Shown here in pieces: positions 12,421 to 37,775 of a stretch of DNA of 64,000 bases (the stretch's first letter is position 1; every line of letters starts with the position of its first letter). The stretch is from Chloroflexota bacterium (GTDB taxonomy: Bacteria > Chloroflexota > UBA11872). Below the pieces are notes generated by a model. That model made no database searches. It saw only the letters and a list, made by a program, of their open reading frames with translations, and was not told the DNA's origin. Location of the stretch: assembly GCA_022821905.1 (NCBI GenBank), contig JAJECS010000030.1, positions 8,586 through 72,585 on the forward strand, written 5' to 3'. Both the position numbers and the translations under genes were made by a program.

Positions 12421-12564
12421 CGCGGAGCGGGCGGCCGCGGGCGGGGATTGCGCTGGTCCAGGCGTCGCGCGGACGGCGGTGGGAATCCACAACCGGCATG
12501 GGCGGGAGTCCGGTCGAGGGGCGGAGCGCCGCCCGCCCCGCCCTTCGTGGCAGAATGCAGGACT

Positions 12565-13227
12565 ATGGCATTGACTAGTACGGCTGAAGACTATCTGCTT
12601 GCGATCTATGGGTTGCGCGCCGAGGGCGGGCCTGTCATCGCCGCCCGTCTTGCGGAGCGCCTGGGCGTTTCGGCCCCGACGGTGTCGGCATCGCTGGACC
12701 GGCTGGTGCGCGACGCGCATGTGTGGATCAATCCGCAGCGCGAGGTCTACCTGACGCTTGGCGGCGAGCGCACCGCCGAGAAGCTGGCCCGCCGCCACCG
12801 GCTCATCGAGCACTGGCTGATCCGGACTCTCGGGCTCGGCTGGGCCGAGGTGCACCACGAGGCCGACCGCCTGGAGCACGCCATCTCGCCCGAGCTGACG
12901 GACCGCATCTCGGAGGCGCTGGGCCATCCGCCGACCTGCCCGCATGGGCTGCCGATCCCGGGCAACTACCCGGAAACCGACGTGGGCAACCTTTTCAAGC
13001 TGTCGTCGGCCGACATCGGGTCCAAAGTGCGGGTCGTGCGACTCTCGGAGCCCGCCGAGGACGACAGCGACCTGCTGCACTATTTCGAGGACAAGCAACT
13101 CGTGCCCGGCCGCGTGATCGATGTGGTGGAGAAGACGCCGGCCGGGCATATCGTGGTGCAGGTGGACGACCAGGCGGCCGTGGTTGACGACACGGTCGCC
13201 GACAATTTGTGGGTGATGGCGGGCTAG
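12565..13227 (+). CDS. DtxR/MntR-family metal-dependent transcriptional repressor with a C-terminal FeoA/SH3-like domain
   Basis: An N-terminal HTH (AEDYLLAIYGL...) and a metal-binding/dimerisation region (HRLIEHWL...CPHG); the C-terminal SH3-like domain is typical of IdeR/DtxR; the start at MALTS (12565) is preferred over the ORF-track start at 12448. Confidence 0.8.
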   Translation: MALTSTAEDYLLAIYGLRAEGGPVIAARLAERLGVSAPTVSASLDRLVRDAHVWINPQREVYLTLGGERTAEKLARRHRLIEHWLIRTLGLGWAEVHHEADRLEHAISPELTDRISEALGHPPTCPHGLPIPGNYPETDVGNLFKLSSADIGSKVRVVRLSEPAEDDSDLLHYFEDKQLVPGRVIDVVEKTPAGHIVVQVDDQAAVVDDTVADNLWVMAG

Positions 13228-13323
13228 CCGCCCGTCGCACATTCCCCGCCCCATGACCATTCGTCGGTCGCCGCACGCCGCGCCGATGCGCCGACGTTTC
13301 ACCCGACGCGAGCAACCCCGAGC

Positions 13324-15906
13324 ATGACGGCCGAGGTCCGGCCAAGCCGCATTTTCACCGTGAGGCCCGCGCTTCCGCAGCGGCTCGAGCGCCTGCGCGA
13401 TCTGGCCTACAACGTGTGGTGGGCGTGGACGCCCGCGGCGCAGGACCTGTTTCGACGCATCGACGCCGAATCCTGGCACGCCTCGCAGGGGAATCCGGTG
13501 GCCGTGCTCACCCGAGCTGCTCCGGGCCAACTCCAAATGCTGGCCGAGGACCCGATTTTCACCGCCGACCTTGACCGCGTGGCTGAAGCCTATGACCAGT
13601 ATCTGAGCCGCCCCACGTGGTTCGAGCAAACGCACGGGCATCTCGAGGGACTGCGCGTGGCCTACGTCTCGATGGAGTTCGGGGTGGCGGAGTCGGTGCC
13701 CCTGTATTCAGGCGGCCTGGGGGTGCTGGCGGGTGATCAGCTCAAGGCCGCCAGCGATCTCGGTGTGCCGCTGGTCGGCGTCGGCATGCTCTATCGCCAG
13801 GGGTACTTCCGGCAGTCGATCGATCCCTCCGGCGCGCAGCGCGAGCAGTTTCCGGAAAACGACGTGGAGGTCCTGCCGGTGGTTGCGTTGCGCTCCGCCG
13901 ACGGGCAGCCGCTGACGGTTCGCGTGCCGATTGACGGGCATGAGATCGCGGTTCGGCTGTGGCGAATGGACGTGGGCCGCGTGCCGCTGATTCTGCTCGA
14001 TGCCAACACGCCGGAGAACAGCCCGGCCGACCGTGAGCTGACGTCCCGGCTGTACATCGGCGACAGCGACATTCGCATTCGGCAGGAGTTGCTGCTGGGC
14101 GTCGCCGGCATGCGCGCGTTGGACGCGCTCGATCTCACGCCGACCGTGGCGCACTTGAACGAGGGGCACAGCGCGTTTCTCATTCTCGAGCGCTTCCAGG
14201 CGCTCCGCGCACAGACCGGTCTCAGCGAGGCCGCGGCGATGCAGATCGTGCGCGCGACCAATGTCTTCACCACCCACACCCCGGTCGCGGCCGGCCACGA
14301 CGAGTTTTCGGCGGATCAGGTGAAGCGTCATGCCGGCGCCTACCTGGAGGCATCGAACATTGACGTCGAGCATGCACTGACCCTGGGCCGGGTGGACGGC
14401 GCCAACGATGGCGAGCCGTTCGGCATCACCACCCTGGCCATGCGCGGGTCCGCCTGGCGCAACGGCGTGAGCGCGCTTCACGGCACCGTGAGCCGCCGGA
14501 TGTGGGAACGGCTGTGGCCGGGCGTGCCGGTCAGCGAGGTTCCGATCGGCCACGTGACCAATGGCGTGCATCTGCGCACCTGGGTGTCTCGAGAGTTGAA
14601 CGGCCTGCTCCAGCGCTACATGGGGCGCCATTGGGCCGAGCGCACCGATCCGCAGGGCATCGAGGAGGGCTTGGCGGCCATTCCCGACGACGAGCTTTGG
14701 CGGGTCCATACGCAACGTCGCGAGCGCCTGGTGGCCAACGTCCGGCGACGCCTGCGAGCGCAAGCGGAGCATCGAGGCGCCGCCGCGCACGAGCTGGCGC
14801 AGGCGTCCGCCGCCCTGCACAGCGACGTGCTCACGGTCGGGTTCGCGCGCCGCTTCGCGCTCTACAAGCGCCCAACTCTGCTGCTGCACGACGTGGAACG
14901 GCTCAAGGCCATCGTCGCGAACTCTCACCGACCGGTGCAGATCATCTTCGCGGGCAAGGCCCATCCCAACGACGATCTGGCCAAGGACCTGCTGCGCGAA
15001 ATCACGGCCATCAGCCGCGATCCGGCCTTCGACGGGCGGCTGGTATTCGTCGAGGACTACGACATGGGACTGGCGCGCGACCTGGTGCAGGGTTGCGACG
15101 TGTGGCTGAACCTGCCGATTCCACCGCAGGAGGCCAGCGGCACGAGCGGCATGAAGGCGGCGGCCAACGGCGTGCTCAACGCCAGCGTTCTCGACGGTTG
15201 GTGGGACGAGGCCTATACCCCGGAAGCGGGTTGGGCGATTGGCCGGGCAGACGTTGACGACGACCGGCAGCGGGATGCAAGCGACGCCGCGGCCATTTAC
15301 GACCTGCTCGAGCACACGGTGGCGCCGTTGTTCTACGACGTCGGCGCGGGAGAGACACCGATTGCCTGGATCCGAATGGCTCGACGCTCAATGGCCCTGG
15401 CGCTGACGGGCTACAGCGCGAATCGAATGGTCCAGAATTATGTCGAGTCGTTTTATGGACCCGCGCATCTGCTCGGCCGGAGCCTGCGCGAGCACCACGG
15501 CGGCGCGGCCACCGACCTTGCCCATTGGCTCGACCACCTGGTGGCCCAGTGGCCCCACGTGCGCGTATTGGAGGTGCACGCAGACGGACCCAGCCAGGTT
15601 GACGCGGGCGTGGTGGTGCCCATTCGGACCCAGGTGGCCCTGGCGGGCCTCAGTCCCGATGACGTGACGGTCGAGGTGTTCGTGGGTCACGTGGACTTCG
15701 AGGGAACGCTGATCGGCGGTCGGGCCGAGGTGGCGGGGCATGCGAGCGCGGAGGCGGACGGCGCCCACTGGTTCACCGGACGCGCGGTGCTGGCCCAAAG
15801 CGGACGCCTCGGCATCGCCGTCCGGGTAGTCCCGCGCCATGCCTTGCTGGCCGGGCCGTACGACGCCGGGCTGATTCGCTGGAGCGAGGCGGCCGGCGCG
15901 ACCTGA
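13324..15906 (+). CDS. glgP: Alpha-glucan (glycogen/maltodextrin) phosphorylase, GT35, alpha-glucan phosphorylase subfamily
   Basis: An N-terminal DUF3417-like segment (AYNVWWAWTP), the GT35 core (GGLGVLAGD, EGHSAFL) and the pyridoxal-phosphate region FAGKAHPNDDLAKDL. Confidence 0.85.
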   Translation: MTAEVRPSRIFTVRPALPQRLERLRDLAYNVWWAWTPAAQDLFRRIDAESWHASQGNPVAVLTRAAPGQLQMLAEDPIFTADLDRVAEAYDQYLSRPTWFEQTHGHLEGLRVAYVSMEFGVAESVPLYSGGLGVLAGDQLKAASDLGVPLVGVGMLYRQGYFRQSIDPSGAQREQFPENDVEVLPVVALRSADGQPLTVRVPIDGHEIAVRLWRMDVGRVPLILLDANTPENSPADRELTSRLYIGDSDIRIRQELLLGVAGMRALDALDLTPTVAHLNEGHSAFLILERFQALRAQTGLSEAAAMQIVRATNVFTTHTPVAAGHDEFSADQVKRHAGAYLEASNIDVEHALTLGRVDGANDGEPFGITTLAMRGSAWRNGVSALHGTVSRRMWERLWPGVPVSEVPIGHVTNGVHLRTWVSRELNGLLQRYMGRHWAERTDPQGIEEGLAAIPDDELWRVHTQRRERLVANVRRRLRAQAEHRGAAAHELAQASAALHSDVLTVGFARRFALYKRPTLLLHDVERLKAIVANSHRPVQIIFAGKAHPNDDLAKDLLREITAISRDPAFDGRLVFVEDYDMGLARDLVQGCDVWLNLPIPPQEASGTSGMKAAANGVLNASVLDGWWDEAYTPEAGWAIGRADVDDDRQRDASDAAAIYDLLEHTVAPLFYDVGAGETPIAWIRMARRSMALALTGYSANRMVQNYVESFYGPAHLLGRSLREHHGGAATDLAHWLDHLVAQWPHVRVLEVHADGPSQVDAGVVVPIRTQVALAGLSPDDVTVEVFVGHVDFEGTLIGGRAEVAGHASAEADGAHWFTGRAVLAQSGRLGIAVRVVPRHALLAGPYDAGLIRWSEAAGAT

Positions 15907-19216: not shown

Positions 19217-20698
19217 GTGGTCATCGCCGCCCTGTACGTCCGCACACTCGACAACTACTTCCAATCCGACGACTTCGACTGGCTGTATACGTATGGCGCG
19301 CGTGCAGCGGCGGCAGGGACGGTGCAGGCGGTGCTGGCCCCGCCCGACCCGGCCTTGGTCGATCCGGCGGATCCCTTCACGTGGAATTACCGGCCCACTA
19401 CTGCCTTGCTCGTCAACGGGCTGTTCCGCCTGTTCGGGGTTGGTGCGCCGGCTGGGTATCACGCGATTCTGATTGCGGGACGCCTGGTGGCGTCGGCGCT
19501 GGCAGGCATGCTGGCGGGCCGCCTCACAGGCCGTGCCTGGATCGGCGCGGCTGTGGTGGCGGTGTTCGGGCTCCACTTCGCGCATGTCGAGACGGTGGCG
19601 TGGTTCGGCTCGATCGCTGAAGTCGTCGCCGGCGTGCTGGGGCTCGCGGCGGTGCTTGCGTTTCTGCACTACCGAGAATCAGGCCGTGCGCGCTGGGCGT
19701 GGACCGCAATTGTGATGTACGGCTTAGCGCTGGGCGCCAACCCCACGGCAGCGCCGATTATCGGAGTCTTTGTGCTGCTGGACCTTTGGCGGTCCGCTCG
19801 CGGAGCCGGACGCCGCTGGAATGCGCATTGGGTCTACTTGCCACTACTAGCGCTAGCGGGCGCGTACCTCGCCATAGAGGCGGCCGCTCTGAGTGTGGCG
19901 GCCGGGAGCGGCGGCTATGGGTATAGCCTCGGTTCGCATGTGCTGCTGAATGCGCTCTGGTACCCCGCAGTTCTTGTTGCCCCCTTCACTGAGCCAGAAC
20001 TGTTCGATGTGCACCGCGCACTGCTTGCCGCAGTCGATGGAAGCGGGTCACTCGCCGACCTCGCGGTGACAGCGAGATTTGCGCCGGTGCTTGTCGCACA
20101 CGTCGCAGTCATCGGCGCGGCTGGCTGGATTGCGGTTCGCGGTCCGGGATGGGCCCGCGTGGCTGTTGCCGCCGCGCTCTGCCTCGAAGCGCCCTTTGTC
20201 CTGCTCGGTGGAACGATGTTCCACTTTGCCTATCTGCCGGCAGCCTTTGTTCTGACCTTAGGCGTCGCCGCCCTGATGGTCAGTTCCCACGCGATGGCCA
20301 GGATGCTGCCGTGGTCCCGGGCGGTTGGTGCGGCGCCGGTGCTTGTTGCTGCAGGTCTCCTGGCCTGGCAGACGCATGGCCGCCTCGACGACTGGGAGTT
20401 TGCCGCCGGCCTCAGCCATCGACTGGTCCAGAGCGCTCACGCGGAGCTGGGCGACATACCCACGGGATCGACCGTAATTGCCGGGGGCCTGCCCAACACG
20501 GTCAACGGCGCCTATGTGTTTCGCGAAGGATTTCCGGCAGCGCTCAAAGTGACATACGGCCGCTCTGACTTTGAGGTTCAGACGTTTAGCCCGCCGGTCG
20601 TCATGCGCTTGATGTCGGAGTCGGACGCTAGCGACAGGCGTTATTTCCTGACCTATGAACCGTCAGCCATGGCCCTTCAGCGTGCAACCCACCGCTAG
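19217..20698 (+). CDS. Polytopic integral membrane protein, possibly a GT-C fold (ArnT/PMT/GT39-87-like) glycosyltransferase
   Basis: 493 aa with 10-12 predicted transmembrane helices and loop motifs such as HFAHVETVAWFG; GTG start; lies between two tRNA-Phe copies. Confidence 0.45.
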   Translation: MVIAALYVRTLDNYFQSDDFDWLYTYGARAAAAGTVQAVLAPPDPALVDPADPFTWNYRPTTALLVNGLFRLFGVGAPAGYHAILIAGRLVASALAGMLAGRLTGRAWIGAAVVAVFGLHFAHVETVAWFGSIAEVVAGVLGLAAVLAFLHYRESGRARWAWTAIVMYGLALGANPTAAPIIGVFVLLDLWRSARGAGRRWNAHWVYLPLLALAGAYLAIEAAALSVAAGSGGYGYSLGSHVLLNALWYPAVLVAPFTEPELFDVHRALLAAVDGSGSLADLAVTARFAPVLVAHVAVIGAAGWIAVRGPGWARVAVAAALCLEAPFVLLGGTMFHFAYLPAAFVLTLGVAALMVSSHAMARMLPWSRAVGAAPVLVAAGLLAWQTHGRLDDWEFAAGLSHRLVQSAHAELGDIPTGSTVIAGGLPNTVNGAYVFREGFPAALKVTYGRSDFEVQTFSPPVVMRLMSESDASDRRYFLTYEPSAMALQRATHR

Positions 20699-21224: not shown

Positions 21225-21869
21225 TTAGCAGCCGCTGTAGATGGTCATGCTGGGGAGGCACCCGAAGTTGATCTGCACGGTCTGCACCGTGACCTCCTCC
21301 AGCGGCGCCGAGTCTCCACCAAGGGCGACGCCGCCAATCTTGTCCAGCGTCGTCTGCGACGGCGTGTGGTTCTCCTTGACGCGCGCGAAGATTGTGGCGT
21401 TCGCCGGCAATTCGTCTTCCGACACGTCGCTGAGCAGAATGTAGAACCGCGACCCATTGGAGTTCGGCGCGCCCGAGTTCGCCATCACCAAATCGCCGCG
21501 CCGGTAGGGCTGCTGCGGCGGCTCGATCTCGAACGTATAGCCGGGGTCACCGGTACCGGTGCCGGTGGGATCGCCGGTCTCGACGAGCACGCCGGGGACC
21601 ACGCGGTGCACCGTCATGCCGTCGTAATAGCCCTCCTGGGCCAGAAACAGGAAGCTGTTCACCGCCCGAGGCGCCTCCTGCGGCACGAGGTTGAAGGTCA
21701 TGCGCCCGAGGCTGGTGGTGAACACGGCGCTGTAGGGTCGAAGCTCCTCAACCGTCATCTCGGGCTCGGCCGCGAACGTCGGCGGACCCTCGGGTTCCGG
21801 CTCGCCACACGCGGCCACCGCAACCGCGGCGATCGCCACGACCAACGCAATCACGATTGCTCGCCACAT
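21225..21869 (-). CDS. Cyclophilin-type peptidyl-prolyl cis-trans isomerase, lipoprotein
   Basis: Cyclophilin core (FHRVVPGVLVETGDP...MANSGAPNSNGSRFYI) with a signal peptide and lipobox (AVAACGEP); a paralog (about 60% identity) of the tandem pair at 36126-37660. Confidence 0.8.
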   Translation of the reverse strand: MWRAIVIALVVAIAAVAVAACGEPEPEGPPTFAAEPEMTVEELRPYSAVFTTSLGRMTFNLVPQEAPRAVNSFLFLAQEGYYDGMTVHRVVPGVLVETGDPTGTGTGDPGYTFEIEPPQQPYRRGDLVMANSGAPNSNGSRFYILLSDVSEDELPANATIFARVKENHTPSQTTLDKIGGVALGGDSAPLEEVTVQTVQINFGCLPSMTIYSGC

Positions 21870-22022
21870 GGCCCGAAGCTCCGAATCCAACCGTCGACTC
21901 ACCCTCTATTTTGCCGCGTTGGCCGCTCTATCGCCATGCAAGGCCCGCTGAGTTGTCCGAGGGGTCGCATGCGCTACGGTTTGGGGCCGTGCCGGTCACG
22001 CCGCTTGGCGTGAGGGGACCTC

Positions 22023-22787
22023 GTGAGCGTCGACATCGACGAATGCGTCGCCGACATCCTGGACGTCGGGCACTGCGTCGTGCCGAATCACTTTCCCAAG
22101 GCGGCGATCGACGCCTTTCACGAGGGATTCCTGCCGCTGCTGGCGAAAGTCGCCTCCCGCATTCCCGAGGGAAACCGGCGGGCAAACCGCTGGGCCATCG
22201 GCCTGCCCTTCGCCCCGCCGTACTATCAGTCCGCGTTCTTCGGCGACGACACGGTCAACGAAATCGTTGGCCGCATCCTGGGCGAAAACATGTTCATCGC
22301 CTACTACGGCACGGACACACCGGTCGCGGGATCGGAGGACCAGCAGGTGCACTCGGACATTCGCCCGCTGTTTCCCGAGCAGCCGGACCTGCGCTATCCG
22401 CCGCCTACGCTCTCGGTGCGGTTCACGAGCGTGGACATGACTCTCGAAAATGGGCCCTACAGCACGTCCGAACGCACGCAGCACCTCACCCGGGACGAGG
22501 CGCGGGCGAAGCTGGCCGCCGGGGAGATCGAGCTCGCGCCGTTGCTGCTCCGGGCGGGCGACGTGCTCATCAGCGATGCCCGCACGCTGCACCGGGGCAC
22601 GGCGAATCGCACGAACGCGCCGCGTCCCTTCGCGGTGATCGTCTACAACCGCGACTGGTACCACCTGGAGAGCGAGTTTCGGCTGGAGGCCAACGAGGAG
22701 ACGCCGATGCTGCTGGAGTCCTTCTACTGGACGCTGCCGACGGCCGAGCAGCAGCTCCTCAGGCGAGTGCCAAGGACGGATGGCTGA
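22023..22787 (+). CDS. Phytanoyl-CoA dioxygenase (PhyH) family Fe(II)/2-oxoglutarate-dependent oxygenase
   Basis: An HSD...H(RG) facial-triad pattern (QQVHSDIRP...TLHRGTAN) in a PhyH-like fold. Confidence 0.65.
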   Translation: MSVDIDECVADILDVGHCVVPNHFPKAAIDAFHEGFLPLLAKVASRIPEGNRRANRWAIGLPFAPPYYQSAFFGDDTVNEIVGRILGENMFIAYYGTDTPVAGSEDQQVHSDIRPLFPEQPDLRYPPPTLSVRFTSVDMTLENGPYSTSERTQHLTRDEARAKLAAGEIELAPLLLRAGDVLISDARTLHRGTANRTNAPRPFAVIVYNRDWYHLESEFRLEANEETPMLLESFYWTLPTAEQQLLRRVPRTDG

Positions 22788-23334
22788 GGGAAAGCGCCCG
22801 ATAGTTCGAGTGCCGGCGGAGACTCGCCTCGTCGTCGTTCCCTACGATCCGGAATGGCCGGCCATGTACGAGCGCGAACGGGCAGAGATTGCCGCGTGCA
22901 TCGATCAGCACATCCTGCGCATCGAGCACGCGGGGAGCACCTCGATCCCCGGCATGGCCGGCAAGCCAACGATCGACATCCTGGTGGGTGTCCAGGATTG
23001 GGACGCGGCGAGGGTCACCTTGGGGCCGCTGGCCGAGATCGGATGGGAGTTTCGCGGCGAGCGCGGCATGCCCCGCCGCCACTTGTTTCGCCGGCTCAAT
23101 GCCCGGGGCCGCCGCACGCACCAGCTGCACATGCTGGAGGTGACCCACCCGGCATGGGACGCGATGCTGCTCTTTCGCGATCATTTGCGCAGCCATTCGG
23201 ATGTTGCGGCGCAGTACCAGCGGCTCAAGCTCGACCTGGCGCGGCGGTTTCCCGACAGCCGGGGCGAGTACACGGCGGGGAAAGAAGCGTTTGTGCGGGG
23301 AGTGCTGGCGCAGGCGCGGCGAGCGCGAATCTGA
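22780..23334 (+). CDS. GrpB-family protein (UPF0157, minimal nucleotidyltransferase-like fold)
   Basis: VVVPYDPEWPAMYERERAEI...HAGSTSIPGMAGKPTIDILVGV is the GrpB signature; overlaps the upstream gene by 8 nt, suggesting co-transcription. Confidence 0.7.
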   Translation: MAEGKRPIVRVPAETRLVVVPYDPEWPAMYERERAEIAACIDQHILRIEHAGSTSIPGMAGKPTIDILVGVQDWDAARVTLGPLAEIGWEFRGERGMPRRHLFRRLNARGRRTHQLHMLEVTHPAWDAMLLFRDHLRSHSDVAAQYQRLKLDLARRFPDSRGEYTAGKEAFVRGVLAQARRARI

Positions 23335-23406
23335 ACGGGCGATTCGTCGGGCCACCCTGTCGATAGACTTGAGGCCGTGCGATCGCGTGAATGACGGGCC
23401 GGCACC

Positions 23407-24255
23407 ATGACGCTTTCCGACCAACAATTGGCGTTCTTCGAGACCTTCGGCTACCTGACCTTTCCGGGAGCCTTCGCCGACGAAGCCGAGAGGATCGCCG
23501 ACGAGTTCGAGCGGGTGTGGGCGGATCATGGCGGCGGCCACAACCGTCAGGCGCACGACCATGAACGCCGCTCAGCCCTGGTGCCGTTCATCGACCAGAA
23601 CGAGTATCTGAGCGCGCTGCTGGACGATCCGCGCGTGGACGGCGTCGTCAGCGCGCTGCTCGGAGACGACTACAACTACACCGGGAGCGACGGCAACTTC
23701 TACGTGGGCGACACGCGCTGGCACTCCGACGGCTTCGCCCGATCGAAATACCGCTCCATCAAGATCGCGTTCTACCTGGACCCGGTCACGCGAGACTCGG
23801 GATGCCTGCGGGTGATTCCCGGCAGCCATCATCGCGGCGACGACTATGCCGAGTCGCTGCAGCGGATCATGCCAAGCAGCCGGTCGGCGTCGGTCCAGGA
23901 GCGACTGGGCATCGACGGTCGCGACGTGCCCGACCTGGCCCTGGAATCGCAACCGGGCGACATGGTGCTGTTCATTCACGACCTGAAGCACGCGTCGTTC
24001 GGGGGCGGAACCCGGCGGCGCATGTTCACCATCAATATGTCCGAGCGCTTCCGTGACGACGACATCGATGAGCTGCGCGAGGACGTCGCGACCCTCGTCA
24101 GGTTCTGGGCCGAGCGGGCGTACGGCGACGTGATGATCCGCACGGCCGGCCCGCGCCGAATGCGGCACCTGGAGCAACGGCTCGCTAACGACGATCACTT
24201 GCCTGAACTGGTCCGCCAGGCGCGCCAGGAGATGATCGAGCCGTCGCGCAGCTAG
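23407..24255 (+). CDS. Second PhyH-family Fe(II)/2OG dioxygenase
   Basis: PhyH-like: ...GDTRWHSDGF... and a downstream His in LKHASFGG. Confidence 0.65.
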   Translation: MTLSDQQLAFFETFGYLTFPGAFADEAERIADEFERVWADHGGGHNRQAHDHERRSALVPFIDQNEYLSALLDDPRVDGVVSALLGDDYNYTGSDGNFYVGDTRWHSDGFARSKYRSIKIAFYLDPVTRDSGCLRVIPGSHHRGDDYAESLQRIMPSSRSASVQERLGIDGRDVPDLALESQPGDMVLFIHDLKHASFGGGTRRRMFTINMSERFRDDDIDELREDVATLVRFWAERAYGDVMIRTAGPRRMRHLEQRLANDDHLPELVRQARQEMIEPSRS

Positions 24256-24351
24256 CCCGCTGCTCGCCCGTCCAACGGTCGGAGGCAGTTGTCGCGGCGT
24301 GCCGCTAGGCTGTGACCATGGCCTCAGCGACAAGCCCGCAATGGTGAAGCA

Positions 24352-25647
24352 ATGACAAAGACGATCCCCGGCGACCACCAATGCTTCAGCGAGGACTGGC
24401 GGCGCACCGACCCTGACCTGGTGCTCTATCTGCCCAAGGAGCCCTCGTACTGGATCGAGGCGGTGGATCACGTGTTGGTGGACGTCACGCCGGGCGGCGA
24501 CCTGCTGGCGATCTTCGCGCTGGCCAGCCAGCCGCACGGGGCGGACTACCGCGTCGCCTACTCACGCAGCGCGGACGGCGGCCGGACGTGGTCGCCGGTG
24601 GGCATCATCGACGGCCCTGGCGACAAGCCGGGACAGGTGAGCGCGTTCGGGTTCCCCATCATCAGCCGGCAGGGTCGTATCTACTGCTACTACAACCACG
24701 GCCGGGCCATCGGCGACAGCTATCAGACCAGCTTCCTGCGCTGCAAGTACTCCGACGACGACGGCCGAACCTGGATCGACGGGGAGGTCGTGATTCCCTA
24801 CCGCTCCAGCGCCAACGACCACCCGGACCGCTCCATCGGCGCCAACTGCGTGGTCTGGCAAAAGCCCATCCGCGACGCGCGGGACCGTCCCATCATCGGC
24901 TTCACTCGCTGGACGAACTCGTACGTCAAGACGGCGCGGCGCGAGGACGACTTCACCATGTCCCGCCGCGACAGCCAGGCCGAGTTCATGCGATTCGAGA
25001 ACATCGACGAGTCACCGCATCCGCGTGACGTTCGGATCACCTGGCTGCAGGACGACGACACGGCCATTCGGGTGCCCGTGCCCTACGAGCCCGAGGCCTC
25101 GCGCAACTATTCCTATTGCGAGGAGCCGAGCGCGGTGCTGCTGCCGGACGGCCGGCTCTTCACGGTGGCGCGCACGGCGACGGGTCAGATCTGGTACACG
25201 GTTTCGACCGACGACGGCGTCACCTGGCGCACGACGGAACCGCTGCGCAACCGGGACGACGGGTCGCCCATGCTCAATCCCGTATCCCCGTGTCCGATCT
25301 TCGCGCTGGACGACGGACGGTTCTTGCTCATGTTGCAGAACCATGACGGCCACGGTTACGGCGGGCGCGGCCCCCGCGACTTTCATGCGCGGCGCCCGCA
25401 GTTCGTCGCCGTGGGTGAGTATCGACCCAACGCCCACCAGCCGATCTGGTTCAGCCAGCCGCAACTGCTGTTCGACACCCAGAACATCGGAGTGTTTCCG
25501 TTCTATATGAAGTGGCTGTCGATGTACGCCAGCGTCACCGAGCACCAGGGCGAGCGCATCCTGTGGTACGCCGACCGCAAGATCTTCGGCCTGGGCCGCT
25601 ACATTACGGATGAGCTGCTGGCGCCCATGGAGGCGCCGTCCGCCTAG
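24352..25647 (+). CDS. BNR/Asp-box repeat protein (sialidase/exo-alpha-sialidase-like beta-propeller), cytoplasmic
   Basis: At least three SxDxGxTW Asp-box motifs (SADGGRTW, SDDDGRTW, STDDGVTW); no signal peptide. Confidence 0.6.
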   Translation: MTKTIPGDHQCFSEDWRRTDPDLVLYLPKEPSYWIEAVDHVLVDVTPGGDLLAIFALASQPHGADYRVAYSRSADGGRTWSPVGIIDGPGDKPGQVSAFGFPIISRQGRIYCYYNHGRAIGDSYQTSFLRCKYSDDDGRTWIDGEVVIPYRSSANDHPDRSIGANCVVWQKPIRDARDRPIIGFTRWTNSYVKTARREDDFTMSRRDSQAEFMRFENIDESPHPRDVRITWLQDDDTAIRVPVPYEPEASRNYSYCEEPSAVLLPDGRLFTVARTATGQIWYTVSTDDGVTWRTTEPLRNRDDGSPMLNPVSPCPIFALDDGRFLLMLQNHDGHGYGGRGPRDFHARRPQFVAVGEYRPNAHQPIWFSQPQLLFDTQNIGVFPFYMKWLSMYASVTEHQGERILWYADRKIFGLGRYITDELLAPMEAPSA

Positions 25648-25731
25648 CGGCCTCGCCGCCAGGGCCGCTGCTACGATTGCCGCCCAACGTCCCGCAGGTT
25701 GTGCGGGTCTTCCCGAGATCGAGACGGCTCC

Positions 25732-26586
25732 ATGGCGATTGAGGTCAGTCCGATTTCGCCCGCCCTGGGCGCCGAGATCACGGGCGCCGATTTGACGCAG
25801 CCGGACGACGACGAGCAGTTCGAGATCATTCACCAGGCGCTGCTGGACCACAACGTGGTCGTCATCCGCGATCAGCAAATCTCGCCGGCGGACCACGCGG
25901 CGTTCAGCGGACGGTTCGGCGTGCTCGAGCTCCACGTGCTGAACCAGTTCCTTTTACCCGAGCAGCCCGAGGTCCTGGTGCTTTCCAACAAGCAGGTGAA
26001 CGGCGTGCCCGTCGGGCTGCAAGACGCGGGCCGCGAGTGGCATAGCGACCTCTCCTATATGAGACTCCCCTCGCTGGGCTCGCTGCTCTACGCGCTGGAG
26101 ATCCCGCCGACCGGCGGCGACACGCTCTACGCCAACCTCTATTCGGCCTACGAGGCGTTGTCGCCGGAAATGAAGGAACGAATCGACGGGCTCCGCCTCC
26201 GGCACTCCTACGCCGACTTCATCAATCGCCGGTTTCAGGAATCCGCGATGGAGCGGCCCACCCTCACCGCGGAGCAGGCGGCCAAGGTGCCCACGGCCGT
26301 ACATCCGCTGGTGCGCACGCATCCTGAGACCGGTCGCAAGGCGCTGTACGTGAGCCCGTCGCTCGTGGCCGGAATCGACGGCATGGACGACGCCGAGGGC
26401 GCGGCGCTGCTGCAAGAGCTCAACGACCACGCCACGCAGCCCGAGTTCGTCTACCGGCACGTGTGGCAGCTCCACGACATCGTGTTCTGGGACAACCGCT
26501 GCACGCTGCACCAGGCCACCGGATTCGACCCGAAATACACGCGCCACATGCACCGCACCACCATCCAGGGCGATTTGCCGGTCTGA
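25732..26586 (+). CDS. TauD/TfdA-family Fe(II)/2-oxoglutarate-dependent dioxygenase
   Basis: WHSDLSY (HxD) and a C-terminal His (HRTT) in a TauD-like fold; the ATG at 25732 (MAIEV) is preferred. Confidence 0.75.
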   Translation: MAIEVSPISPALGAEITGADLTQPDDDEQFEIIHQALLDHNVVVIRDQQISPADHAAFSGRFGVLELHVLNQFLLPEQPEVLVLSNKQVNGVPVGLQDAGREWHSDLSYMRLPSLGSLLYALEIPPTGGDTLYANLYSAYEALSPEMKERIDGLRLRHSYADFINRRFQESAMERPTLTAEQAAKVPTAVHPLVRTHPETGRKALYVSPSLVAGIDGMDDAEGAALLQELNDHATQPEFVYRHVWQLHDIVFWDNRCTLHQATGFDPKYTRHMHRTTIQGDLPV

Positions 26587-26587
26587 A

Positions 26588-28324
26588 CTAGCGCGTTGGA
26601 TCCACCGCCGACCCACCCGCCTGGGCGCGGCGCAAACCGGCGAACCGGCCACCGGCTTGAAGCAGCGCGTCCGGCGTTCCCTGCTCGAGCACCCGGCCGC
26701 GGTCCATCACGACGATCCGATCCGCGCCGATCACCGTTTCGATCCGGTGGGTGACCACAATCAGGCTTCGGCCACGTCTCGACGATGCCAGGGCGTCTCG
26801 CAGCGCTTGCTCGGTGACCACGTCCAACGAGGCCGTGGCTTCGTCGAGAATCAGCAGGCGCGGGTCTCTCAGCAGCGCGCGGGCGATGGCGATGCGCTGC
26901 CGCTCGCCGGCCGAAATCTGGTGACCCTGCTCGCCAACGGTGGTTTCGAGTCCGTGCGGAAGCCTGGCAATGAATTCGTCAAGCTGCGCATCCCGCAGCG
27001 CCTGCTCCAACTCGTCGGCACCAGCCTCCCCGGTTGGATAGCGGATGTTGTCGGCGATGGTCGCATCCCACAGCTTGGGCTCCTGGGGCACGTAGCCGAC
27101 TTGCCGGCGCAGCCACGAGAGGTCGAGCTCGCGCGTGTCGATGCCGTCGACATGCACCGATCCCGCGTGCGGCGCATAGAGGCCGATCATCAAATCCAGC
27201 AGCGTCGACTTGCCGCTGCCGGTTTCCCCCACGATGCCGAGGAATTCGCCCGGCCGGACCGAGAACGAGACATCGAAGACGCCCGCGTCTTCACGCGCAT
27301 AGCGAAAGGTGGCCTCTCGAAACTCGATCCGAGATCCCGAATCAGCCGCCGGTAGCCGCGGTGCTGTCAGGCCGCCAACTCGCTCCGGAGCCAGGCGGAA
27401 CAGGGCGTCCACGCGCTCATACTCCGCTTCAATCCGCGCCCGGTTGGCTTGCAGGGTCAGGAGACTCTGCACGGAGACGTAGATCCGCGGCACGAGCGCC
27501 ACGGCCGCGATCAGCCCACCGAGCGACAGATGTCCCCCCGCAATGAGGACGGCGCCAACCCCGAATACCGCCGCCGTCACCAGCGCCTGGGCCGCCGGAC
27601 CGACGTGAGCGATCAGCAGATCGTGCAGGACGACGGTCTTGACCTTGGCGCGCCAATGATCGTCAAGCCATTGAAGCCATCGCCGTCGCTCGTGCGCCGT
27701 GGCGTCGAACACCCGGACAACGCGAATGCCCGCAAGCACCTCCTGCAGGAATCCTTGGCCGCGTTCGAGGTGCCGCAAGAGCCGTCGCTCGAGTTGCGTC
27801 GCCGGCGGCCCAAGGCGGCCGACGCCCAGCGTCAGGGCTGGCACGGCCACCAGCGCCAAGAGTCCCAGCGGCCAGGCAACCACCAGCATGGCCGCCATCG
27901 CAGCGACCAGAACCAGAGCGTGCGAAACGGAAGGAAGCAGCGACACCGTGACGTACCACTCACCGATTCGCCCACAGGATCGGGTGATTCGAAACACCAG
28001 TTGAGGAGAGGGGATCTGCTCAAGCTCCACGAGTTGGGCAGCGGTGACGCAATCGAACGCTCGGTTGCGGAGGCGTCGCGATACCGCTTCGCCAATCGAG
28101 AACCGCATGTAGCTCTCGCTCGACGAGAGGAGGAGTTGCACAAGAGCCGCTCCGGCCATCCCGCCGGCGAGGGCCGCCGCCAGCCCGAGGTCACCGCCGG
28201 GGAGGGCGTGATCGACGAGAGCGCCAACCAGCAGAGCCGGAACAGTGCCGACGGCCGCGCCAGCCAGCATCAGCCCGACCGTCAGTGCAATGGTTCGCCA
28301 ACGACGACGAAGCTCCTGCCGCAC
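26588..28324 (-). CDS. ABC exporter, fused transmembrane and ATP-binding domains (MsbA/type I exporter-like)
   Basis: An N-terminal 6-TM domain; the NBD has Walker A GETGSGKST, signature ISAGERQRIAIARAL and Walker B LLILDEATASLD. Confidence 0.85.
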   Translation of the reverse strand: MRQELRRRWRTIALTVGLMLAGAAVGTVPALLVGALVDHALPGGDLGLAAALAGGMAGAALVQLLLSSSESYMRFSIGEAVSRRLRNRAFDCVTAAQLVELEQIPSPQLVFRITRSCGRIGEWYVTVSLLPSVSHALVLVAAMAAMLVVAWPLGLLALVAVPALTLGVGRLGPPATQLERRLLRHLERGQGFLQEVLAGIRVVRVFDATAHERRRWLQWLDDHWRAKVKTVVLHDLLIAHVGPAAQALVTAAVFGVGAVLIAGGHLSLGGLIAAVALVPRIYVSVQSLLTLQANRARIEAEYERVDALFRLAPERVGGLTAPRLPAADSGSRIEFREATFRYAREDAGVFDVSFSVRPGEFLGIVGETGSGKSTLLDLMIGLYAPHAGSVHVDGIDTRELDLSWLRRQVGYVPQEPKLWDATIADNIRYPTGEAGADELEQALRDAQLDEFIARLPHGLETTVGEQGHQISAGERQRIAIARALLRDPRLLILDEATASLDVVTEQALRDALASSRRGRSLIVVTHRIETVIGADRIVVMDRGRVLEQGTPDALLQAGGRFAGLRRAQAGGSAVDPTR

Positions 28325-28585: not shown

Positions 28586-29434
28586 GTGAAGCTCGGCTAT
28601 TTCCACAACGGCCATTTTCCGCCGATCGACTTCGAGGAGTTCGTGCGCTGGGGCGCGGCCAACGGCTATCAGGCCATCGACGTGCCGCTGTTCCAGCCCG
28701 ACGCCCGGGCCATTTGTGAGCGTCACGGCCTGGAGCCGACGTCGACCACGGGCATGGTCTGCCAACCCATCGCCACCGACGCGGCGACACGGACCGAGCA
28801 AGCGGCTGAGGCCCGCCGGGCGTTGGACTACGCCGCGACCGAGCACATCCCGCTTGCGTGGCTGGGCCACCAGATGGCGCCGGACCTCGGGTTCGACGCC
28901 AACGTGCGGCTTTTCGCGGAGGGCGTGGCGCCGGTACTGGACCACGCGCAGCGGGTGGGCGTGCGCCTGGTGATGGAGAACTGGGCCGACGGCGGCCGGA
29001 ACCTGGCCTATGCCCCGGCGCACTGGGAGGCGATCTTCGACGCGGTGCCGCACGAGGCGCTGGGGCTGTGCTTCGATCCATCGCACCTGGCCTGGCTGGG
29101 CATCGACTACCTGCGCGCGGCGCGGGAGTTCGGCCCGCGCATCTATCACGCCCACGCCAAGGACACCGAGTTCCTGCCGGAGGCGCGCTACCAATACGGT
29201 GTCATTGGCCCCGAGCGCGGGCGGATCGGCCAGGGAACCTACCGGTTTCGGATTCCCGGATTCGGCGTGATCGACTGGCCCGCCTATATCACCGCGCTGC
29301 TCGAAATCGGCTACGACGGTCCTCTCGTCGTTGAGCACGAGGACCCGTTCTGGAGCGCCAGGATCGATCCCAGGAACGACGCGCTGAAGGGGCTGACGCT
29401 AGCCCAACAGTTTCTGGCGCCGCTGCTGATCTAG
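28586..29434 (+). CDS. Sugar phosphate isomerase/epimerase (xylose isomerase-like TIM barrel) family protein
   Basis: Family hallmarks MKLGYF...GYQAIDV and the internal motifs MENWADGG and HAHAKD. Confidence 0.65.
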   Translation: MKLGYFHNGHFPPIDFEEFVRWGAANGYQAIDVPLFQPDARAICERHGLEPTSTTGMVCQPIATDAATRTEQAAEARRALDYAATEHIPLAWLGHQMAPDLGFDANVRLFAEGVAPVLDHAQRVGVRLVMENWADGGRNLAYAPAHWEAIFDAVPHEALGLCFDPSHLAWLGIDYLRAAREFGPRIYHAHAKDTEFLPEARYQYGVIGPERGRIGQGTYRFRIPGFGVIDWPAYITALLEIGYDGPLVVEHEDPFWSARIDPRNDALKGLTLAQQFLAPLLI

Positions 29435-29460
29435 GCGTTCAGCCAGAGGCGCCGGTTCGG

Positions 29461-30486
29461 CTATTCGTTCGTCCAGCCGTCGGGAATCTCGTTGGCATCC
29501 AGCGCGGATTTGATGGCTTCGGCGGCCTCGGGTGTAACCCAGGCCGTCCATACGCTCACGTGGCTCTTCAGCCACCAGAGCGCTGTTTCATTGATGCTGG
29601 CATCTCGGTTCTCCAACCGCCATTTGCCGACTTCCTTGTAGCGCTCGAGATCCAGATTCCAGGCTCGGAGCATCTCGACGACTTCCGGCGCCCTATCAGG
29701 AATATCTCGATGCACGGCAATCGAAATCGTCGCGTACCGGTAGGCGCAGGCCTTGGTCGTCTCCCAGCATTCGTCCGTGTACTCAGGCTCCTCGAGACGG
29801 ACCAAGTCAAGCTCGGCCGCGGGGTCATTGGTTCCCCACTGGTAGCCGAGCCACGGCTCCCGTCGCTCGTATGCACCGTAGAGGTCGGCATTCGCCGCCG
29901 CGCCGTCTCCCGGATTGATGATGTGGATGTGGTCCGAAAGTCCGTACGCCTCGATTTGCTGCGCATTGATTTCTTCGCACACCCAGCCGATGACGCAGGA
30001 CACGAGACGTGCCTTTCCGCGCGTTTCGGTGGTGGCGAACAGGGCCTTGTACTTCTCATCTTTCAGATCTTCGACACTGTCCAACTCAGGGTATTGCTCC
30101 TGCAGGTAGGCGGGGATGACGAAGGCGGACTGCCAGTCTCGGCCGAGACTTTCGCCAACCAACTCCACATCGCCCGCTGCCAGAGCATCCACCCAGGCAT
30201 CCTCTTGGTTCGGCAGCCAGATCTCCATGGTTACCTGGGTGTCGCCTCGGCGCAGACCCTGCAACAACGGCAGCGTGGCGCCGAACACCAGATCGGTGGG
30301 ATAGCCGTAGCCCTTTTCAACGATGTATTGGGCGACGCGATTCTGGAACTGCGCGCTGGTCCAATTCAGGTCGCTGAAGACGATGGGGGCTTTCTCCTCA
30401 ACCATGTCGTCCGGGCCGCAGGCAGTCGCGAAAACGACAGCGAGCAGCGTCAATGCCAAAATTGACAGTCTGGCCATAGTCAACAT
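29461..30486 (-). CDS. ABC-type glycine betaine/choline (ProX/OpuAC-like) substrate-binding lipoprotein; orphan, no adjacent permease
   Basis: A signal peptide with lipobox (FATACGPDD); the SBP domain has an aromatic-rich pocket (W/Y residues) typical of ProX-like proteins. Confidence 0.55.
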   Translation of the reverse strand: MLTMARLSILALTLLAVVFATACGPDDMVEEKAPIVFSDLNWTSAQFQNRVAQYIVEKGYGYPTDLVFGATLPLLQGLRRGDTQVTMEIWLPNQEDAWVDALAAGDVELVGESLGRDWQSAFVIPAYLQEQYPELDSVEDLKDEKYKALFATTETRGKARLVSCVIGWVCEEINAQQIEAYGLSDHIHIINPGDGAAANADLYGAYERREPWLGYQWGTNDPAAELDLVRLEEPEYTDECWETTKACAYRYATISIAVHRDIPDRAPEVVEMLRAWNLDLERYKEVGKWRLENRDASINETALWWLKSHVSVWTAWVTPEAAEAIKSALDANEIPDGWTNE

Positions 30487-30760
30487 GCGGCAGTTCCCCC
30501 TGGTAATTCCTTCAGGCTGTTTGCGGCGCATTCGATGGAGTTGTGGTCAACGTGCACGTGCGAATGCCCGTCCAATCTGTAGGAAACAATCGGCCGAGCC
30601 AATGCGCGTGCCGTCCGGCCTCATTTGCACGGTGGCAGGCTCTGGGAGGCTCGCGGACCCATCCCCAATTCGCGGATGGTATCGCCTAGGGCCAGGTCAG
30701 GCCAGCCGTCAGGGACGGAACGGCACGCCAGGTTGCGTCGAGTGATCCGAGCCGGTCCGG

Positions 30761-36976: not shown

Positions 36977-37660
36977 CTATGGCTTGCAGGTGAACCCGAT
37001 GGCTCCCTCGCCGGAGCAGTTGAGCGTCACGCCGGTCTTCATCTCCGATATCGTGATCTCCTGCTGCGGCGCCGACGACTCCCCGTCCGCGGCCGTGCCG
37101 ACGGGCACCGCTTCGATCTTGGCCAGGGTGTTGAACGATGCCTGATGCCCTTCCTTGATCTGGCCGAAGAGCGTGAAGTCCGGCGACAGCCGGCCCTGCT
37201 CGGTGAGGTCGTCCAGAATGATGAAGAACTGCGAGCCGTTGGAGTTTGGCGTGCCCTTGTTGGCCATCGCCAGCCCGCCGCGGACGTAGGGCCGCTGCGG
37301 CGGCTCGATCTCGAAGGAGTAGCCCGGTCCACCGGTGCCGGTGCCGCTGGGATCGCCGCCCTGCACCATGAATCCCGGGATCAGCCGGTGGAAGGTCACC
37401 CCGTCGAAATAGCCCTCGTTGGCCAGGAAGAGGAAGTTGTTCACGGCCAGGGGCGCCTCCTCCGAGAAGAGGGTGAAGGTCATGCGCCCCAGGCTGGTGG
37501 TGACGATCACCCATGGCTCGCCGGCGGGAATGTCCATGGCCGGATAGGCCGTGTAGGTCTTGGGGCCCTCGGGCTCGGCTTCGCCGCATCCCACGGCCAC
37601 AACGACCAGCAGCAACGCCACCAGGGCGAGTCGCAACATTTCCCACGCTCCTTTGACCAC
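36977..37660 (-). CDS. Cyclophilin-type peptidyl-prolyl isomerase lipoprotein, tandem copy 2
   Basis: As for copy 1; 227 aa. Confidence 0.85.
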   Translation of the reverse strand: MVKGAWEMLRLALVALLLVVVAVGCGEAEPEGPKTYTAYPAMDIPAGEPWVIVTTSLGRMTFTLFSEEAPLAVNNFLFLANEGYFDGVTFHRLIPGFMVQGGDPSGTGTGGPGYSFEIEPPQRPYVRGGLAMANKGTPNSNGSQFFIILDDLTEQGRLSPDFTLFGQIKEGHQASFNTLAKIEAVPVGTAADGESSAPQQEITISEMKTGVTLNCSGEGAIGFTCKP

Positions 37661-37775
37661 CGCCGCGCCGGCTGCATTGTCCCAATCACCGCCTCAGGTT
37701 GTCGCGCGGCGCCGGTGGGATTGCCGTCCTAAACTGGGCCTACGACGAGGGCAAACACCGACAGAAGGACGCGCC

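Follow-up and report, generated by a model that had tools for sequence, protein, structure and literature searches.

Five intact genes on one strand, three of them encoding Fe(II)/2-oxoglutarate (2OG) oxygenases, lie side by side in a metagenomic contig from an uncultured Chloroflexota bacterium (Table 1). With a probability of roughly 45%, we propose that the region encodes a cytoplasmic catabolic module restricted to this lineage, with an anionic glycoside or a sugar-acid derivative as the putative substrate. The conserved core is made up of PhyH1, a BNR protein with the sialidase fold, and a TauD/TfdA-family dioxygenase. GrpB and PhyH2 are within-clade additions, as is a small SAM-methyltransferase present in relatives. 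The window, that is, the whole stretch of DNA that was analyzed, is 64,000 nucleotides long, and many related MAGs bear isolate names that point to sponge microbiomes.

Table 1. Features of the cluster and of its flanks, in window positions.
Feature	Position	Strand	Support	Role
Cyclophilin gene, divergent from PhyH1	21225-21902	-		Upstream neighbor
Intergenic region, cyclophilin gene to PhyH1	21903..22022	.	Position only	Presumed promoter region of the cluster
PhyH1, PhyH-family Fe(II)/2OG oxygenase, 254 aa	22023..22787	+	Pfam PhyH 43.3 bits (cut-off 22)	Core
GrpB (UPF0157, nucleotidyltransferase-fold), 184 aa	22780..23334	+	Pfam GrpB 165 bits	Clade-specific accessory
PhyH2, PhyH-family Fe(II)/2OG oxygenase, 282 aa	23407..24255	+	Pfam PhyH 56.7 bits	Clade-specific accessory
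BNR, cytoplasmic six-bladed beta-propeller, sialidase fold, 431 aa	24352..25647	+	Pfam BNR_2 51.3 bits (cut-off 31.4)	Core
TauD/TfdA-family Fe(II)/2OG dioxygenase, 284 aa from ATG	25732..26586	+	Pfam TauD 253.6 bits	Core
Fused TMD-NBD ABC exporter, MsbA-like half transporter	26588..28324	-	Pfam ABC_membrane + ABC_tran	Neighbor only

Gene content and conservation of the cluster

All six ORFs delineated in the sequence-only reading were recovered, and its family assignments (PhyH, GrpB, BNR, TauD and ABC) proved correct by HMM, with Pfam scores above the cut-offs. None of the five same-strand genes is pseudogenized: their lengths match those of homologues and all are under purifying selection (dN/dS 0.06-0.24 against orthologues), BNR being the most constrained (0.06-0.09) and PhyH1 ranging from 0.09 to 0.24. 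The 8-nt overlap between the end of PhyH1 and the start of GrpB holds, provided that the ATG at 22780 is the start of GrpB. In the public annotation of the identical contig this start lies later, giving a protein of 156 aa; we favor the long form because the Pfam GrpB model already aligns from residue 18 and because orthologues begin -13 to +4 nt from the PhyH1 stop. The TauD-like ORF has an alternative TTG start at 25699, and here the public call agrees with the 284-aa form. The remaining gaps between same-strand genes (72-96 nt) are not tight, and the five genes may be co-transcribed. In the presumed promoter region, a scan for the sigma-70 consensus gave no match and a search for Rfam elements found none, and a promoter/terminator scan of the cluster gave no informative signal. 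Three tRNA genes lie just upstream of the cluster; among them is a duplicated tRNA-Phe, whose copies enclose a strain-specific orphan ORF.

The order PhyH1-GrpB-PhyH2-(methyltransferase)-BNR-TauD was observed in close relatives only, whose BNR is at least 92% and whose PhyH1 is at least 79% identical. The five genes were found together again in contigs L004-L010 and L079, and no more than a single narrow group of uncultured Chloroflexota was observed to carry the cluster. Shared descent alone might account for this synteny, given that the five-gene arrangement was not observed beyond close relatives. The more divergent contig L087 carries a reduced core in which PhyH1 (71%), BNR (82%) and TauD (70%) are contiguous, with just 18 nt between BNR and TauD and with dS values (1.2-1.9) near saturation; GrpB and PhyH2 are absent. 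The five genes had been taken as one unit, a view that needs correcting for these two clade-specific additions. GrpB is accessory, since L004 and L006 carry it in duplicate and L009 has a frameshifted copy. The other nearest BNR (83-84% identical) is solitary among housekeeping genes (shikimate, lysA-like, MurT), one TauD homologue, at 70% identity, likewise stands alone, and a 64%-identical one sits inside an amino-acid-type ABC importer/racemase/DAO cluster; the three core families are therefore not interdependent. Among the close relatives, the interval from the cyclophilin to the ABC gene varies, with a methyltransferase gene between PhyH2 and BNR, a second one after TauD, a giant S8/fn3/cadherin gene, or the duplication or frameshift of GrpB.

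The ABC exporter had been read as part of the pathway. We regard it as a bystander because it is convergent and is set apart from TauD by unrelated genes in relatives. A single base separates the two stop codons in the window, as had been noted (26586 for TauD, 26588 for ABC). The distance is 1-7 kb in L004-L010, where methyltransferase genes or a gene for a 1,200-1,585-aa S8-peptidase/fn3/cadherin protein intervene, and in L079 and L087 no such exporter adjoins the cluster. It reached none of the NCBIfam equivalog cut-offs.

Core and accessory proteins

Direct reading of the BNR N-terminus (MTKTIPGDHQCFSEDWRRTDPD...) revealed no hydrophobic signal segment, bearing out the claim that a signal peptide is lacking, and this end lies within the confidently folded part of the AF2 model (pLDDT 87.8, pTM 0.90). 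The top Foldseek matches of the model were GH33 sialidases (TM about 0.6, identity 13-18%). The BNR family (643 matches) has many invariant residues, among them E258, R274 and Y392, and an equally invariant Asp39-His40 stands in place of the first catalytic Arg (RIP motif). The active site is non-canonical; with Asp-His in the position of the first Arg, the substrate is probably not canonical sialic acid. The family is rich in paralogues, with at least seven in one 3.1-Mb genome. Elsewhere, these paralogues are found among carbohydrate-catabolic genes encoding GH42, GH116, sugar SBP_bac_1 binding proteins, DHDPS/NanA-family lyases, GFO/IDH/MocA oxidoreductases, xylose-isomerase-like TIM barrels, a 3-keto-disaccharide hydrolase and more BNR_2 proteins. 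Three additional, independent contexts (group B, group D and L063) also place PhyH genes near them; in L063, a 41%-identical PhyH2 homologue is 4.4 kb from a BNR paralogue.

PhyH1 belongs to a small family (59 matches) in which D112 is invariant and H110 and H190 are nearly so. Its nearest solved relative is KanJ, the kanamycin B dioxygenase (E 3e-11 for the single sequence, falling to 6e-17 for the family profile). Homologues that are 55-67% identical neighbor genes for GH42, AP_endonuc_2/UxuA, glucuronoyl esterase, MR_MLE dehydratases, HpcH/HpaI aldolases and GFO/IDH/MocA, with another BNR_2 protein within ~3 kb in two of the five contexts. PhyH2, only distantly related to PhyH1, has invariant H106, D108 and H195, and its best PDB match, EvdO2, is weak (E 0.004). 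GrpB matches PDB entry 2nrk (E 4e-27) and also 6n39, the C-terminal domain of a mycobacterial dephospho-CoA kinase.

The TauD-like protein keeps the Fe/2OG ligands H99, D101, H255, T126 and R266 as well as the anion-binding (sulfonate-binding) H70 and R270. It scored 209 bits with Pseudomonas putida TauD, 200 bits with Escherichia coli TauD and 182 bits with RdpA. An identity as taurine dioxygenase was rejected: the NCBIfam score (249 bits) is below the cut-off (313), and the taurine amine-binding positions Y73, N95 and S158 are substituted in this protein and in its 120 nearest homologues.

A catabolic route and its alternatives

In the catabolic module that we propose, a compound of the anionic glycoside, ulosonic-acid or sugar-acid type, originating in the host or in dissolved organic matter, would be imported, although Pfam annotation found no importer genes, tauABC-type included, in the cluster. 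The BNR protein, which retains the sialidase Glu/Tyr pair and the second Arg and has Asp-His for the first Arg, could then cleave it in the cytoplasm. The 2OG oxygenases might strip substituents beyond the reach of hydrolases, hydroxylating the carbon beside a heteroatom, after which the bond would break spontaneously. Among known relatives, KanJ carries out oxidative deamination, and TauD, TfdA/RdpA and AtsK cleave C-S, ether or sulfate-ester bonds. The sequence-only reading had offered a small tailoring or catabolic pathway; the catabolic half is the better reading. No description of this gene combination was found in the literature searched, as had been anticipated.

A serious, if doubtful, alternative is that there is no shared pathway, and that independently acting enzymes from expanded families accumulated in a variable accessory region downstream of tRNA genes, the conserved order reflecting recent common ancestry only. 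This would fit the changing gene content between cyclophilin and ABC, the three tRNA genes with their duplicated tRNA-Phe around an orphan ORF, and the solitary state of the closest outgroup BNR and of one 70% TauD homologue. PhyH-domain genes are expanded in sponge symbionts, namely, Poribacteria (Kamke et al. 2014, PMC3909097), sponge MAGs are enriched in GH33 (Robbins et al. 2021, PMC8163846), and PhyH and GH33-like families, both highly expanded in sponge symbionts, are also laterally transferred in sponge-associated bacteria (PMC3909097, PMC8163846); such abundance raises the chance of accidental proximity. However, the PhyH1-BNR-TauD order is kept in L087 at dS 1.2-1.9 even without GrpB and PhyH2, PhyH-family and BNR_2-family genes come together again in several unrelated contexts, and the five genes run in the same direction, separated by short gaps and with a start/stop overlap in one pair.

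Tailoring and export of a secondary metabolite, in which the oxygenases and GrpB would decorate a natural product and the ABC transporter would export it, is very unlikely. The solved structures nearest to PhyH1 and PhyH2 (KanJ, FtmOx1, AusE and EvdO2) do belong to natural-product enzymes and an exporter adjoins the cluster in the window, but no PKS, NRPS, terpene-synthase or glycosyltransferase core that could form a scaffold was found among the Pfam-annotated ORFs of the window, the exporter is convergent and not conserved in position, and PhyH1 and BNR homologues occupy catabolic rather than biosynthetic neighborhoods. Phytanoyl-CoA hydroxylase hydroxylates acyl-CoA, and in actinobacteria a GrpB domain is fused to dephospho-CoA kinase. 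A CoA-linked metabolism, with the PhyH enzymes hydroxylating acyl-CoA-type substrates and GrpB handling the CoA or nucleotide moiety, would agree with the dephospho-CoA kinase match of GrpB, the overlap of its start with the end of PhyH1, and the PhyH gene adjoining coaE in paralogous group-B loci. It is nevertheless highly improbable, as KanJ is a far nearer relative of PhyH1 than any acyl-CoA hydroxylase, GrpB is dispensable (absent in L087, frameshifted in L009), and the cluster holds no acyl-CoA ligase, dehydrogenase or thioesterase genes. Use of taurine or another organosulfonate, the TauD-family enzyme freeing sulfite from a host-supplied sulfonate and its neighbors processing the carbon skeleton, is very unlikely too: taurine dioxygenases are the best NCBIfam and PDB matches, and the sulfonate-binding residues and all Fe/2OG ligands are kept, but the score falls short of the equivalog cut-off, RdpA is nearly as close as TauD, the three amine-binding residues are replaced, no tauABC-type importer is present, and sponge MAGs show no enrichment of taurine catabolism (Robbins et al., PMC8163846).

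Comparison with known systems

The expansions described in sponge symbionts concern the same two families, PhyH and GH33-like/BNR, but these studies handle the families separately and describe neither their linkage nor a non-canonical BNR active site (PMC3909097, PMC8163846). The GH33 exo-alpha-sialidases (for example, Micromonospora viridifaciens 1EUR/1EUS; Porphyromonas gingivalis PG_0352) share with BNR the six-bladed beta-propeller with Asp-boxes. In alignment with the P. gingivalis enzyme, E258 and R274 fall on its catalytic Glu and second Arg, and in our own reading Y392 lies in a C-terminal M-Y-A-S motif resembling that of the nucleophile Tyr. Unlike these sialidases, BNR has Asp39-His40 for the RIP-motif Arg and no invariant acid at the general acid/base Asp position, and the overall likeness is limited to the identity and TM values given above. 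Clusters of a sialidase with a NanA lyase have a counterpart in the BNR paralogues of other lineages that directly adjoin DHDPS/NanA-family lyases; the BNR protein studied here, however, is cytoplasmic and flanked by 2OG oxygenases instead of nan genes.

In porphyran utilization loci, a cytochrome P450 reportedly demethylates 6-O-methyl-galactose oxidatively. There too an oxygenase within a glycan-catabolic locus removes a decoration that blocks glycoside hydrolases, although it is a P450 rather than an Fe/2OG enzyme, and the function is experimentally established there and drawn by analogy here. As a separate observation, contig L085 brings together PhyH paralogues, a P450 and a BNR_2 protein.

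TauD (tauABCD), TfdA, RdpA/SdpA and AtsK belong to the same family as the TauD-like protein, which has the full set of Fe/2OG ligands and the anion-binding His and Arg; heteroatom-adjacent hydroxylation followed by spontaneous cleavage would be the expected chemistry. It differs from TauD in its amine-binding residues and in adjoining BNR instead of a tauABC importer. KanJ, itself of the PhyH family, carries out the oxidative deamination of kanamycin B at the 2'-amino sugar carbon. Its similarity to PhyH1 is limited to the HxD...H 2OG-oxygenase core (the profile match spans residues 61-214), and PhyH1 has no kanamycin-type biosynthetic genes nearby and has homologues in catabolic contexts. KanJ nonetheless provides an example that the branch of the family to which PhyH1 belongs can act on amino-sugar carbons.

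Gene content of the cluster

The sequence-only reading had delimited six ORFs exactly as we find them, and every family that it named was borne out by Pfam (see table). The 8-nt overlap that it placed between PhyH1 and GrpB requires GrpB to begin at the ATG at 22780. On the identical contig, the public gene call puts this start later; we accepted the ATG because the Pfam model aligns from residue 18 and orthologue starts lie a few bases from the PhyH1 stop. The stop codons of the TauD-family and ABC genes likewise converge with a single base between them. Coding statistics of the region are typical of high-GC DNA (GC3 0.86-0.88). When compared with their orthologues, all five same-strand genes gave dN/dS values of 0.06-0.24, reflecting purifying selection, and none of the five is pseudogenised. 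Scans of the region for consensus promoters, terminators, Rfam elements and repeats did not help to place operon boundaries or the ends of an island. A BNR protein identical to that of the window is also encoded on an ENA metagenome scaffold, its closest genomic relatives being Chloroflexota bacterium MAGs; the isolate names of many related MAGs suggest a link to sponge microbiomes.

Coordinates and family assignments of the window features discussed
Feature	Position	Strand	Assignment
tRNA-flanked segment	18793-20958		two full-length tRNA-Phe(GAA), two differences
Orphan ORF	19217-20698		493 aa
Cyclophilin, left	21225-21902	-	cyclophilin-type peptidyl-prolyl isomerase
PhyH1	22023-22787	+	Pfam PhyH (PF05721), 43.3 bits, cut-off 22
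GrpB	22780-23334	+	Pfam GrpB (PF04229), 165 bits, cut-off 25.5
PhyH2	23407-24255	+	Pfam PhyH (PF05721), 56.7 bits, cut-off 22
BNR protein	24352-25647	+	Pfam BNR_2, 51.3 bits
TauD-family gene	25699/25732-26586	+	Pfam TauD (PF02668), 253.6 bits
ABC gene	26588-28324	-	Pfam ABC_membrane 82.5 bits, ABC_tran 123.1 bits
Genes past the ABC exporter	28586-30531		xylose-isomerase-like TIM barrel (AP_endonuc_2); orphan OpuAC-type substrate-binding protein
Cyclophilin, right	36977-37693	-	cyclophilin-type peptidyl-prolyl isomerase
RCC1-repeat protein	45448-51807	+	2,119 aa, about 29 RCC1_2 repeats (RCC1-like beta-propellers), Pfam total 975 bits

Several of these features lie around the cluster. The two cyclophilin paralogues are 15 kb apart, and in all relatives the left one borders the cluster on that side. 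Further upstream, the tRNA-Phe genes flank an ORF for which a mobile-element origin was rejected, as it had no Pfam hit and a negligible PHROG hit. In L005 and L006, two loci of close relatives, a Band7 gene is followed almost directly by the cyclophilin gene; the 2-kb tRNA-flanked segment of the window thus has the look of an insertion that is specific to this strain and was made at a tRNA gene. On the other side, the OpuAC-type protein has no adjacent permease or ATPase among the neighbouring genes, and AP_endonuc_2 genes also recur near BNR paralogues (neighborhood group D) and near a PhyH1 homologue (L080).

Conservation of gene order

To compare neighborhoods, 74 genomic loci around BNR homologues were fetched, their ORFs were compared with the window proteins and all neighbours were clustered. 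A minus-strand cyclophilin gene followed by PhyH1-GrpB-PhyH2-BNR-TauD was found again in L004-L010, where the BNR proteins are 92-95% identical to that of the window, and in L079 (PhyH1 79%, BNR 93%). Complete Chloroflexota chromosomes with the cluster include OZ253558.1, OZ244789.1 and CBDEVI010000002.1. Among the loci compared, this full order occurs only where BNR identity is at least 92%. Even within this clade the content varies: a gene for a 193-aa SAM-methyltransferase, missing from the window, sits between PhyH2 and BNR in L006, L008, L009 and L079 and precedes BNR on the short contig L003; a second methyltransferase gene follows TauD in four loci; and GrpB has a tandem second copy in L004 and L006 and a frameshift in L009. 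Outside the clade, PhyH1 (71%), BNR (82%) and TauD (70%) are directly adjacent on the JGI contig L087, at dS values of 1.2-1.9, and GrpB and PhyH2 are absent. We therefore regard PhyH1-BNR-TauD as the conserved core triad and GrpB, which varies in copy number and is missing from L087, as accessory.

The sequence-only reading had made the case depend on co-localisation in other genomes. This was found for all five genes in the clade and for the triad in L087, but the complete arrangement does not extend beyond close relatives among the loci compared; the synteny is limited but real. BNR homologues of 83-84% identity (L011, L077, L078) are solitary amid shikimate-pathway, lysA-like and MurT genes, the core triad not being kept around those of L011 and L077. 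A TauD homologue at 70% identity was also found solitary, and one at 64% is clustered with a polar-amino-acid ABC importer, an Asp/Glu racemase, DAO and an aminotransferase. A metagenome scan for further PhyH1 loci yielded two only, one of them a fragment, and an in-house PhyH HMM run over all fetched loci and the window revealed no PhyH genes beyond those already known. Of about 25 distinct BNR contexts, 5 have a PhyH gene within 10 kb (~0.1-6 kb away), a proximity that is no more than suggestive of a functional link.

Inclusion of the exporter in the unit, as first proposed, did not survive this comparison. In relatives the ABC gene is always convergent, lies 1-7 kb from TauD with unrelated genes between, and is absent beside the cluster in L079 and L087. 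The gap in three loci holds genes for a ~250-300-aa unannotated protein and a 1,200-1,585-aa S8-peptidase/fn3/cadherin protein. Because of this variable convergent position and these absences, the exporter was ruled out as a cluster member and is taken to be a bystander.

Active-site conservation in the encoded proteins

Both PhyH proteins carry the HxD...H facial triad. In PhyH1, D112 is invariant and H110 and H190 nearly so among 20 homologues, and in PhyH2 the iron ligands H106, D108 and H195 are all invariant. PhyH1 belongs to a small family (59 hits), and its nearest solved relative is KanJ (E 3e-11 with the single sequence, 6e-17 with the profile), followed by FtmOx1 and AusE at ~1e-8. 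However, the similarity to KanJ covers residues 61-214 only (65 bits), and no aminoglycoside genes were found nearby among the annotated window ORFs; a KanJ-type kanamycin B dioxygenase was rejected on these two grounds. Among solved structures PhyH2 has a weak match at best (EvdO2, E 0.004). PhyH genes only distantly related to it (~25-31% identity) lie 0.8-2.6 kb from BNR paralogues of neighborhood groups B and D, both of them conserved contexts, and in L063 a 41% identical homologue lies 4.4 kb from one.

The contexts of five PhyH1 homologues (55-67% identity) were also read. Their neighbours comprise GH42, AP_endonuc_2/UxuA and glucuronoyl esterase (L080); Iso_dh, MR_MLE, Amidohydro_2, MFS, a second PhyH and HpcH aldolase (L081); FGE-sulfatase, a 354-aa BNR_2 protein, MR_MLE, aminotransferase, GFO/IDH/MocA and PhyH (L083); HpcH and Amidohydro_2 (L084); and a seven-PhyH array with HpcH/HpaI aldolase, cytochrome P450 and a 365-aa BNR_2 protein (L085). 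Three of the seven PhyH genes in L085 (positions 1-14765, ENA BERG17-1 scaffold_133) encode tandem 254-aa PhyH1-like paralogues.

The TauD-family protein scores 249 bits against the NCBIfam taurine dioxygenase model NF007104, whose equivalog cut-off is 313, and it resembles RdpA (182 bits) almost as closely as TauD (200-209 bits). Its Fe ligands His99/Asp101/His255 and 2OG ligands Thr126/Arg266 are all kept; four of the five are invariant in the 120 nearest homologues and Thr126 is present in 119. The anion-binding residues His70 and Arg270 are also kept, but Tyr73, Asn95 and Ser158 (E. coli numbering) are replaced, and these positions are variable or different in the 120 nearest homologues. 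Residue roles, such as taurine amine binding by these last three, are taken from the E. coli TauD structures. With a score below the cut-off and the amine-binding positions not kept, a taurine dioxygenase was rejected, and the protein is assigned to the TauD/TfdA family only.

The BNR protein has 643 family hits at E <=1e-5, and the 120 best show more than 50% identity and dozens of invariant residues. Its AF2 model (pLDDT 87.8, pTM 0.90) is a six-bladed beta-propeller with the Asp-boxes SRSADGGRTW, SDDDGRTW and STDDGVTW, and Foldseek placed it nearest to GH33 sialidases (probability 1.0 to many, TM ~0.6, identity 13-18%). In a profile alignment, the catalytic Glu and second Arg of P. gingivalis sialidase align with invariant E258 and R274, and by our own reading a C-terminal M-Y-A-S around invariant Y392 resembles the nucleophile Tyr motif. 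By contrast, the Arg-Ile of the GH33 RIP motif, which supplies the first Arg of the triad, is replaced by invariant D39-H40, as judged from sequence register with the first beta-strand, and the loop corresponding to the general acid Asp219 of P. gingivalis holds no invariant acidic residue. R347 or R348 is a plausible candidate for the third Arg. In fold the protein thus resembles sialidases, but a canonical GH33 sialidase was rejected on these predicted differences. Its many invariant arginines suggest an anionic ligand.

Paralogues of this ~430-aa cytoplasmic family are also found in Acidobacteriota, Latescibacterota and Dehalococcoidia MAGs (loci L012-L076), each paralogue group having its own conserved carbohydrate-type neighborhood. 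The 3.1-Mb Chloroflexota chromosome OZ244806.1 holds at least seven copies (L011, L039, L043, L046, L047, L064, L072), and tandem triplets occur in L014 and L042. Their neighbours include GH42, GH116, sugar-binding SBPs, DHDPS/NanA-family lyases, GFO/IDH/MocA oxidoreductases, xylose-isomerase-like TIM barrels, 3-keto-disaccharide hydrolase, other BNR_2 proteins and MarR regulators, a setting that is consistently carbohydrate-catabolic. A ~530-590-aa family with no Pfam hit (c3), absent from the window, recurs beside BNR paralogues in groups C, D and F (e.g. L016:16790-20468, L040, L073-L076), which makes at least three unrelated contexts. The 526-aa protein encoded after the PhyH1 homologue of L083 (L083:7768-9348) is weakly similar to it (~21% identity, E 1e-6).

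For GrpB, the best structural matches were E. faecalis GrpB (2nrk, E 4e-27) and the C-terminal domain of mycobacterial dephospho-CoA kinase, and the literature searched held nothing informative on its function. In group-B loci (e.g. L032:13909-15636), a PhyH gene adjoins coaE (dephospho-CoA kinase) in a paralogous BNR neighborhood, while in the window GrpB, a domain fused to CoaE in mycobacteria (PDB 6n39), stands beside PhyH genes. This parallel may be a coincidence, as coaE there precedes a riboflavin operon.

Possible roles of the PhyH1-BNR-TauD triad

The sequence-only reading had proposed either a tailoring or a catabolic pathway. Biosynthetic tailoring with export is unlikely, and was rejected, as no scaffold-forming genes are present among the annotated window ORFs and the exporter is not linked; the catabolic half of the proposal is preferred. 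Most economically, the region can be read as a catabolic module, cytoplasmic and specific to this lineage, with PhyH1-BNR-TauD as its core and an anionic glycoside or sugar-acid-type compound as its substrate. Its 2OG oxygenases would hydroxylate positions adjacent to a heteroatom and so release substituents. This mechanism is an inference, whereas gene content, the limited synteny, purifying selection, the fold and the conserved cofactor ligands are shown. Nearly as likely, the genes have nothing to do with one another and occupy a variable accessory stretch, since the complete order is seen in close relatives only, every core family is also found alone, and sponge symbionts show a strong expansion of the PhyH and GH33-like families (PMC3909097 and PMC8163846, respectively); the recurrence of the five genes in the clade and of the triad in L087 stands on the other side. 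Were proximity all that the genes share, the region would be no more than a variable accessory segment of the ordinary sort. If the triad does form a unit, the use of host or dissolved organic matter by these families could be tested through a set of just three enzymes.

A more specific version of the catabolic module, which we consider improbable, is a glycan "de-decoration" module that has gone unrecognised, in which a remodelled cytoplasmic sialidase-fold enzyme would act with Fe(II)/2OG oxygenases that oxidatively strip amino, methyl, ether or sulfate groups from a host-specific anionic sugar. If true, it would explain the PhyH-domain and "GH33 sialidase" expansions in sponge symbionts, neither of which is biochemically explained. 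In addition, "sialidases" or "taurine dioxygenases" counted in MAG surveys may have other substrates.

That the combination is not a described operon agrees with the literature searched, where no paper links these families and none has phytanoyl-CoA dioxygenase, BNR and sialidase together. Within that literature neither the combination nor the altered BNR active site has been described; the components themselves come from known superfamilies. Release of substituents through heteroatom-adjacent hydroxylation is the chemistry of KanJ, TauD, TfdA/RdpA and AtsK.
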